From Escherichia coli (GTDB lineage: Bacteria > Pseudomonadota > Gammaproteobacteria > Enterobacterales > Enterobacteriaceae): DNA of 413 nucleotides. Below the pieces are notes generated by a model, which did not search any database, had not been told where the DNA came from, and saw only the letters and a list, made by a program, of their open reading frames with translations. Made by a program: the position numbers and the translations under genes. Location of the stretch: NCBI RefSeq assembly GCF_003334335.1, contig NZ_QOWQ01000193.1; one strand, 5' to 3'. Shown one piece after another: positions 1 to 162 of this stretch (positions within the stretch are counted from its first letter, which is position 1; each line of letters begins with the position of its first letter).

Positions 1-162
1 ATTTACAGTGGCGTTATTGATATGCCTGCCGGTCACGGTCACATGACACTGGAGTTTTCGGTGTCAGCATGGCTGGTAAATAACTGGTATCCCACAGCAA
101 GTATCAGCGATTTGCTGGTTGTGGTGATGAAGAAAGCCACTGCAGGCATCACGATTAGCTGA
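1..162 (+). CDS. J: 3' end of a phage tail gene, most likely tail tip/host-specificity protein J (central tail fibre) of a lambdoid prophage; partial, 5' end lies outside the window
   Basis: Frame +1 is open from base 1 to TGA at 160-162 (53 codons: [53 protein letters not shown]). No stop before the left edge, so this is the C-terminus of a longer gene. It ends 67 bp upstream of a lom homologue on the same strand, matching the lambda gene order J-lom with a short spacer. The J assignment rests on synteny and my recollection of the lambda J C-terminus, not on a computed alignment. Confidence 0.6.

Follow-up and report, generated by a model that had tools for sequence, protein, structure and literature searches.

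Which outer-membrane receptor is addressed by the phage tail protein whose end is encoded at this Escherichia coli locus, and how much of the determinant of that choice does the locus itself hold? The stretch of DNA analysed here, hereafter the window, is 413 nt long. On its plus strand, frame 1 is open from the first nucleotide, codes through nt 1-159 and closes with a TGA at 160-162, so that translation confirms both the coordinates (1-162) and the count of 53 residues given in the initial annotation. The whole window is 100% identical to nt 228-640 of AF151091.1, the deposit of prophage P-EibA from E. coli ECOR-9, and four complete E. coli chromosomes likewise match it over its full length at 100% identity. 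In AF151091, nt 1-389 are annotated as a partial cds for a "J protein-like protein", downstream of which lie lom, an orf-401-like tail fibre gene and eibA. In the chromosome of JE86-ST02 (NZ_AP022811), bases 1-162 of the window end a 3471-nt gpJ gene with a product of 1156 aa, and the partial J of P-EibA is identical to the end of this gene at 389/389 bases. The P-EibA record begins 227 nt upstream of the window, and the full-length and domain tests were accordingly carried out on the chromosomal gene in the identical context.

The assignment to J, which the initial annotation had made by synteny, is borne out by gene order (I-J-lom-stf), full-length homology and domain content alike. In JE86-ST02 the gpJ gene is preceded by G, T, tape measure, M-like, L, K-like (C40 peptidase) and I-like genes and followed by lom, side-tail-fibre remnants annotated as pseudogenes, and a YadA-like (Eib-type) gene. 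As annotated in NZ_AP022811 and AF151091, it thus occupies the place of lambda J, between the tail genes G-T-H-M-L-K-I and the lom and side tail fibre genes. Further, the upstream reading frame, anticipated to exceed 1000 aa, runs to 1156 aa in the identical-sequence contexts, and its product is neither short nor unrelated to J: end to end, 762/1159 positions (66%) are identical to lambda J. The protein contains the Pfam series FNIII-A_GpJ, Phage-tail_3, Ig_J, Ig_J_second, Phage_Tail_Tip and Ig_GpJ_C (all with E ≤ 2.5e-22) and is assigned to PHROG 31, "central tail fiber J". The 53-aa peptide by itself aligns colinearly with lambda J 1079-1131 in a pairwise BLASTP comparison (18/53 identical, one gap, E 2e-08). 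The feature at nt 1-162 of the plus strand, i.e., the last 53 codons and the TGA stop, is therefore delineated concordantly by translation, DNA identity, alignment to lambda J and Pfam.

A chance open reading frame at nt 1-162 is ruled out by the 100% identity to annotated J genes together with the full-length homology, and the minus-strand reading frames (23-37 aa) overlap conserved J or lom coding sequence and are without support. Additionally, a scan of the window against Rfam matched no RNA family, on account of which we reject nt 1-162 and the following spacer as candidates for non-coding RNA, the terminator-like hairpin described below excepted. Nucleotides 1-162 encode the C-terminal 53 residues of a true lambda-type gpJ, belonging to a lambda-like siphovirus prophage of the P-EibA type. 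By homology to the solved fibres of lambda and A8, this gpJ would form the trimeric central tail fibre of the virion.

Pfam domain PF12421 (Ig_GpJ_C, "C-terminal receptor binding domain") spans residues 1026-1156 of the protein. The residues encoded in the window (1104-1156, the counterpart of lambda J 1079-1132) make up roughly the last 40% of this domain and about 31% of the 173-aa "specificity region", a term applied to lambda J 960-1132, which takes in 97% of the substitutions that occurred when lambda switched to OmpF in the laboratory (Maddamsetti et al. 2018, PMC6646904). Natural J homologues likewise vary most within 960-1132, with indel hotspots at 1012, 1048-49, 1077-78 and 1107, and residues 1012 and 1107 are the two universally required for the switch to OmpF (PMC6646904). 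Inspection of an alignment of seven specificity regions (window J, PhiR40_1, VT1-Sakai, phage 21, A8, lambda and 434) shows gaps exactly at four sites, which are the equivalents of lambda 1012, 1048-49, 1077-78 and 1107. Only one of these four indel-rich variable loops, the counterpart of that at lambda D1107, lies in the window, the other three being encoded upstream of it; hence, the 53 residues are part of the determinant and not the whole. The earlier proposal that the C-terminal tail is the probable receptor-specificity determinant accordingly stands as far as its location inside both the specificity region and PF12421 is concerned, and overstates the matter in that the tail carries just one of the four variable loops.

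An AlphaFold2 monomer model of the last 173 residues of gpJ (pLDDT 75, built from the shallow seven-sequence alignment) displays a β-sandwich extending from about residue 39 to residue 164. Read along the plus strand, nt 1-36 encode a strand end (IYSGVID) and a turn (MPAGH), as judged from the secondary structure of the model and the invariant columns S123, D127, M128, P129, G131 and G133. These are followed at nt 37-111 by a 14-residue β-strand and an 11-residue loop, delineated from the model and the seven-sequence alignment, and at nt 112-159 by the last β-strand (LLVVVMK) and the C-terminal tail (KATAGITIS), placed by the same two means. Within the second of these elements, a variable, indel-bearing segment of 13 residues (about nt 64-102, plus strand) aligns with the lambda segment TSTRHSADIPPYTFA, which contains D1107. 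The motif D-M-P-x-G-x-G is invariant in the seven J specificity regions despite their different receptors, which suggests that the MPAGH turn is probably framework as opposed to a specificity element. Also invariant across the seven are D157, V160, V162, K164, K165, G169 and I170. Indeed, the last strand and tail are largely kept between classes (D..V.V.KK...GI), the tail being a low-confidence part of the monomer model.

The 13-residue variable segment is thereby singled out in the model and alignment as the candidate receptor-contact loop, the fourth of four. In the structure of lambda gpJ with LamB, the Ig-like domain inserts four bottom loops, L1-L4, into the receptor, and the text of that study gives no residue ranges for these loops (PMC11101478). 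Along the order of the strands, conserved turns come between the four indel sites, which may therefore correspond to L1-L4, with only the fourth encoded in the window. Equating the sites with these loops and naming the window loop "bottom loop L4" would draw on strand alternation as opposed to coordinates.

The kinship with lambda J is of several kinds: gene position, colinearity over the full length, the series of Pfam domains and the Ig-like C-terminal domain are all common to lambda gpJ (P03749; structures 8IYK, 8XCK and 8XCJ; receptor LamB). The identity is nonetheless unevenly distributed, amounting to 73.6% against lambda J 1-830, 14% against 831-872, 67% against 873-959, 46.8% against the specificity region (960-1132) and 33-34% against 1079-1132, the part encoded in the window; the divergence is strongest towards the C-terminus. 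Neither the close similarity to lambda 960-1132 nor the same loop lengths that would mark the LamB class were found, there being length differences at all four variable sites. At the site within the window, the D1107 loop of lambda, RHSADIPPYTFA, is replaced by a 12-residue sequence. At 18/53 identical residues, and with the D1107 loop carrying an indel, the tail is a homologue of lambda's that belongs to another class. Thus, the comparison with lambda J that the initial annotation had put forward as a possible indicator of the receptor gives a clear outcome: the tail is not a lambda-like (LamB) one and instead matches that of the OmpC-type 1A2. Judged from the matching 1A2 graft, the receptor of the window J would be OmpC, as against LamB for lambda.

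A second strongly divergent module in this J (JE86-ST02 gene, L002:5692-9162) occupies about residues 826-895, with flanks that are 60-80% identical to lambda. Here the helical shaft of lambda (831-872) is replaced in the window-type J by an unrelated segment that is 28 residues longer. In lambda, shaft residues 841-861 refold into a β-sheet when the tail opens (PMC11101478). On account of the divergence of the segment lying over lambda 831-872, the window-type J may differ in this shaft-refolding step.

The class to which the tail does belong has been examined in an engineering context. Brödel et al. (Nature 2024, PMC11338833) joined natural gpJ C-termini from E. coli strains to lambda gpJ at residue 964 and screened these grafts in a lamB deletion background. 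The next assays used cells that lacked both lamB and ompC and were complemented with 23 alleles of OmpC (PMC11338833). One of the grafts, 1A2, delivers DNA without LamB (PMC11338833). In isogenic lamB/ompC-deleted cells, its delivery by OmpC allele was about 2% for G1 and G2 as against about 98% for G3 and G5 (PMC11338833). On MG1655 carrying the OmpC of EDL933 it reached 93% at an MOI of 26 and 99% at an MOI of 78, and on wild-type MG1655 about 5% at an MOI of 50 (PMC11338833). A further graft, A8, works with the OmpC of both K-12 and EDL933, whereas 1A2 makes no use of that of K-12 (PMC11338833).

The DNA of 1A2 was taken from the supplement of PMC11338833, where it is recoded and has been damaged by machine reading of the PDF, such that exact identity cannot be certified from it. 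Plain tblastn gave broken, frame-hopping alignments, and the protein-to-DNA alignment was made by frameshift-tolerant dynamic programming. Over 173 codons, the window-type J and 1A2 share 159 identical positions, with 8 unreadable codons and 6 apparent mismatches. Five of these six fall where the text is plainly garbled, to the point of an impossible stop codon, and are probably errors of PDF reading. The sole credible difference, HEKEH for HEREH (R to K), is situated upstream of the window and is the variant present in VT1-Sakai. The last 53 codons contain no mismatch, 50 of them being identical and the other 3 unreadable. The class of 1A2 is thus the same as that of the J proteins of VT1-Sakai, the PPompW phages, 2G7b, JLK-2012 and the window type, the difference being that 1A2 was assayed outside its native phage, grafted to lambda J and combined with a P2-type side fibre. 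Taken together, the sequence match to 1A2 and the published delivery by 1A2 point to OmpC as the receptor of the 1A2/VT1-Sakai class, used independently of LamB and in an allele-selective manner.

Structural comparison leads to the same porin by way of a neighbouring class. The best sequence match of the specificity region in the PDB is A8 gpJ 713 (9wca/9wcb, E 1.7e-64), with lambda gpJ next. Foldseek with the AlphaFold2 model ranks first 9wcb, the open state of A8 gpJ 713 with OmpC G17 (EDL933), followed by 9wca, 8xck and 8xcj. A8 gpJ, solved closed (9WCA) and open with OmpC bound (9WCB), is hence the closest solved structure and that of an OmpC binder. Its identity to the window-type J is 63-67% over 173 aa, and 37/53 in the window, which makes it a member of a neighbouring class and not of the same one; its own class includes the identical J of phage 2H10 and several Stx1 phages. 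The loops of A8 differ in both sequence and length, the second variable site carrying an insertion of 5-6 residues and the first being shorter, and its counterpart of the variable loop encoded in the window is SSSGANNWTPTTS.

More generally, tblastn searches of the phage collection show that the specificity regions form discrete bands of identity to the window type. About 53 records belong to the band at 98% or above, among them the PPompW phages, 2G7b, JLK-2012 and several Stx phages; the band at 88% contains PhiR40_1, that at 68% phage 21 and that at 64% many Stx1 and Stx2 phages, while lambda and, separately, 434 are found at about 47%. Over the 53 residues of the window, VT1-Sakai is identical at all 53, phage 21 at 39, A8 at 37, 434 at 26 and lambda at 18. 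Over the whole specificity region, VT1-Sakai shares 172/173 residues with the window-type J. A literature search on the J protein of phage 21 in connection with OmpC returned no match. Phage 434 has the same domain; however, with 50% identity in the specificity region, 26/53 residues in the window and an indel pattern of its own, it represents an independent class. Classically, 434 is an OmpC-dependent lambdoid phage, with a porin receptor other than LamB.

Among the ECOR-derived temperate phages, PhiR47_1 (PV340566) and PhiR55_1 (PV340571) match the DNA of the window at 93-96% identity, and PhiR40_1 (PV340560) has a specificity region that is 88% identical. The defence system SNIPE gives only modest protection against PhiR40_1, PhiR47_1 and PhiR55_1, which are cited in connection with ManYZ-independent defence, and both SNIPE susceptibility and ManYZ dependence have been linked to clades of the tape measure protein (PMC13190303). 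In the ECOR-derived PhiR literature, no native-phage receptor data for a J of the 1A2 class were found, PMC13190303 being concerned with ManYZ and the tape measure protein.

On the basis of the 1A2 match, we put at about 85% the probability that the end of the window J belongs to an OmpC-type, as opposed to a LamB-type, class and discriminates between OmpC alleles, accepting that of the EDL933 type and many more besides, though not that of K-12. By extension from the chimera, the native P-EibA-type phage would use OmpC as 1A2 does. The opposing view that the tail is a LamB-binding domain of the lambda type, and that the prophage uses a lambda-like receptor, can appeal to the fold and framework residues held in common with lambda J and to the related domain (68% identical) of phage 21, a classical lambdoid phage. 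It is, however, scarcely credible given that identity to lambda is no higher than 18/53 in the window and 47% in the specificity region, that lengths differ at the four variable sites, including the D1107 loop, and that the 1A2 graft matching this tail came out of a selection on lamB-deleted cells, with an activity that tracked the OmpC allele.

A subtler departure from the OmpC reading would have OmpC as one of several receptors, or as a factor that is not decisive in the native phage, where J and the side tail fibres together would address further or other outer-membrane proteins and the 53-residue tail would contribute little to the choice. The J of Gifsy-1, which is lambda-like, binds OmpC, OmpX and BtuB (PMC12312913), and OmpC therefore need not be the sole receptor; the presence of just one of the four variable loops in the window, together with the need for residue 1012 besides 1107 in the switching of lambda (PMC6646904), would fit with a small contribution by the tail. 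Against this, a change of OmpC allele in otherwise isogenic strains took delivery by 1A2 from about 2% to about 98%, a swing which argues that OmpC is at least necessary in the 1A2 setting, and the loop in the window is the counterpart of lambda 1107, which is universally required for the OmpF switch (PMC6646904). We regard this alternative as very unlikely. That the copy in the window is a dead remnant of a defective prophage, with a non-functional J fibre whose specificity has no present consequence, appears unlikely as well. Such decay is exemplified by the J of the Stx1 prophage VT1-Sakai (AP000400, L007:690-4162), which is annotated as two overlapping ORFs "truncated by a mutation" while its specificity region is 99% identical, and which shows that an intact receptor-binding end does not imply a working tail fibre. 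The side-tail-fibre pseudogenes downstream in JE86-ST02 and the occurrence of up to 8 copies of the tail per genome, many of them likely in degraded prophages, point the same way. Conversely, where the chromosomal sequence is 100% identical, J reads through all 1156 aa without interruption and the tail module upstream of it is complete, and the plaque-forming isolates 2G7b, PhiR55_1 and vB_EcoS-783R2 carry a tail of this class. Sandt, Hopper and Hill are said to have found in 2002 that the Eib prophages of ECOR-9 are transferable as lysogens.

As modelled, the Ig-like domain at the fibre tip takes from the window its last three β-strands, a conserved turn, a single variable loop and its C-terminal tail. 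In analogy to the complexes of lambda gpJ with LamB and of A8 gpJ with OmpC, the variable loops, situated on the distal face of this domain, would insert into the porin trimer, and the binding of OmpC would trigger rearrangement of the fibre and opening of the tail. In lambda, receptor binding spreads the three domains apart and drives the rearrangement of the fibre and the opening of the tail tip (PMC11101478). For A8 gpJ, closed and OmpC-bound open states are both present in the PDB (9wca, 9wcb). On these parallels, the variable loop of the window would contact OmpC, and the conserved turn, last strand and tail would serve as framework or in trimer contacts. It is conceivable, albeit doubtful, that this loop and the nearby turn residues H-G-H-M set the discrimination of OmpC alleles that separates 1A2 from the A8 and phage 21 classes; the three upstream variable loops also differ between the 1A2, A8 and phage 21 classes.

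The spacer that separates the J stop from lom contains an intrinsic-terminator-like hairpin on the plus strand (181-206), identified by consensus scan and RNA folding, in which an 8-bp stem and a 4-nt loop (181-200; GGGCACCA-GAAA-TGGTGCCT) are followed by TTTTTT. The terminator consensus scan found 1 such element against 0.3 expected, and the RNA fold of nt 163-232 has an energy of -17.1 kcal/mol, with a z of -2.9 relative to shuffles. In phage 21, a terminator is annotated at the equivalent place after J. The hairpin may separate late tail transcription from lom; in lambda, lom is expressed from the prophage. Downstream of it, 221-413 of the plus strand comprise a ribosome-binding site, GAGG (221-224), and the start of lom (ATG at 230), of which 61 codons are included, as indicated by the annotation of the identical records and by PHROG. 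This start of lom matches PHROG 108, "Lom outer membrane protein" (E 7.5e-25), and the gene runs off the window. The Lom N-terminus, MRKLCAVILSAVVWLVAAGTPASA / AEHQ..., resembles a signal peptide, in keeping with an outer-membrane protein of the Ail/Lom family. As a prophage cargo gene adjoining J, lom is also the synteny marker that lay behind the earlier J assignment.

The J tail is widely disseminated. Nucleotides 1-162 match 3253 of 5426 complete E. coli genomes (~60%), with a median of 2 and up to 8 matches per genome, and 1188 records reach an identity of 99% or more. Plasmids carry 30 of the 7140 places matched, possibly as phage-plasmids or integrated prophage fragments. An isolated match of 75 nt (94.7%) to nt 88-162 of the window is present in APEC O78 (NC_020163.1, 242922-242996), where the overlying genes are annotated as "hypothetical protein" and "YdaS family helix-turn-helix protein"; this is apparently a detached fragment of a J 3' end in another prophage context. 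Comparison of AF151091 nt 1-3225 with JE86-ST02 shows 99.5% identity for 1848 nt, covering the end of J, lom and the start of the orf-401-like fibre gene, beyond which there are blocks of 97% and 92% identity with gaps. The YadA-like (Eib-type) gene is 1464 nt long in JE86-ST02 as compared with 1179 nt for eibA. The region downstream of lom is mosaic.

Several components of this picture are already known, namely the J-like annotation in the P-EibA deposit, the modular specificity region with its indel hotspots and recombination (PMC6646904), the use of the 1A2 class as an OmpC-targeting module (PMC11338833) and the solution of the neighbouring A8 class with OmpC. What the present analysis offers is of value for annotation: J genes can be sorted by their 3' ends into discrete receptor classes, and the J end in the window is to be annotated as "OmpC-type, allele-selective" as opposed to "lambda-like/LamB". 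This bears on the prediction of host range for prophages carrying eib or stx and on the choice of J modules for engineered lambda particles. Should the variable loop in the window indeed set the discrimination of OmpC alleles, the E. coli lineages open to a lambdoid prophage carrying Eib, Stx or other cargo could be predicted by typing this short 3' end of its J gene.
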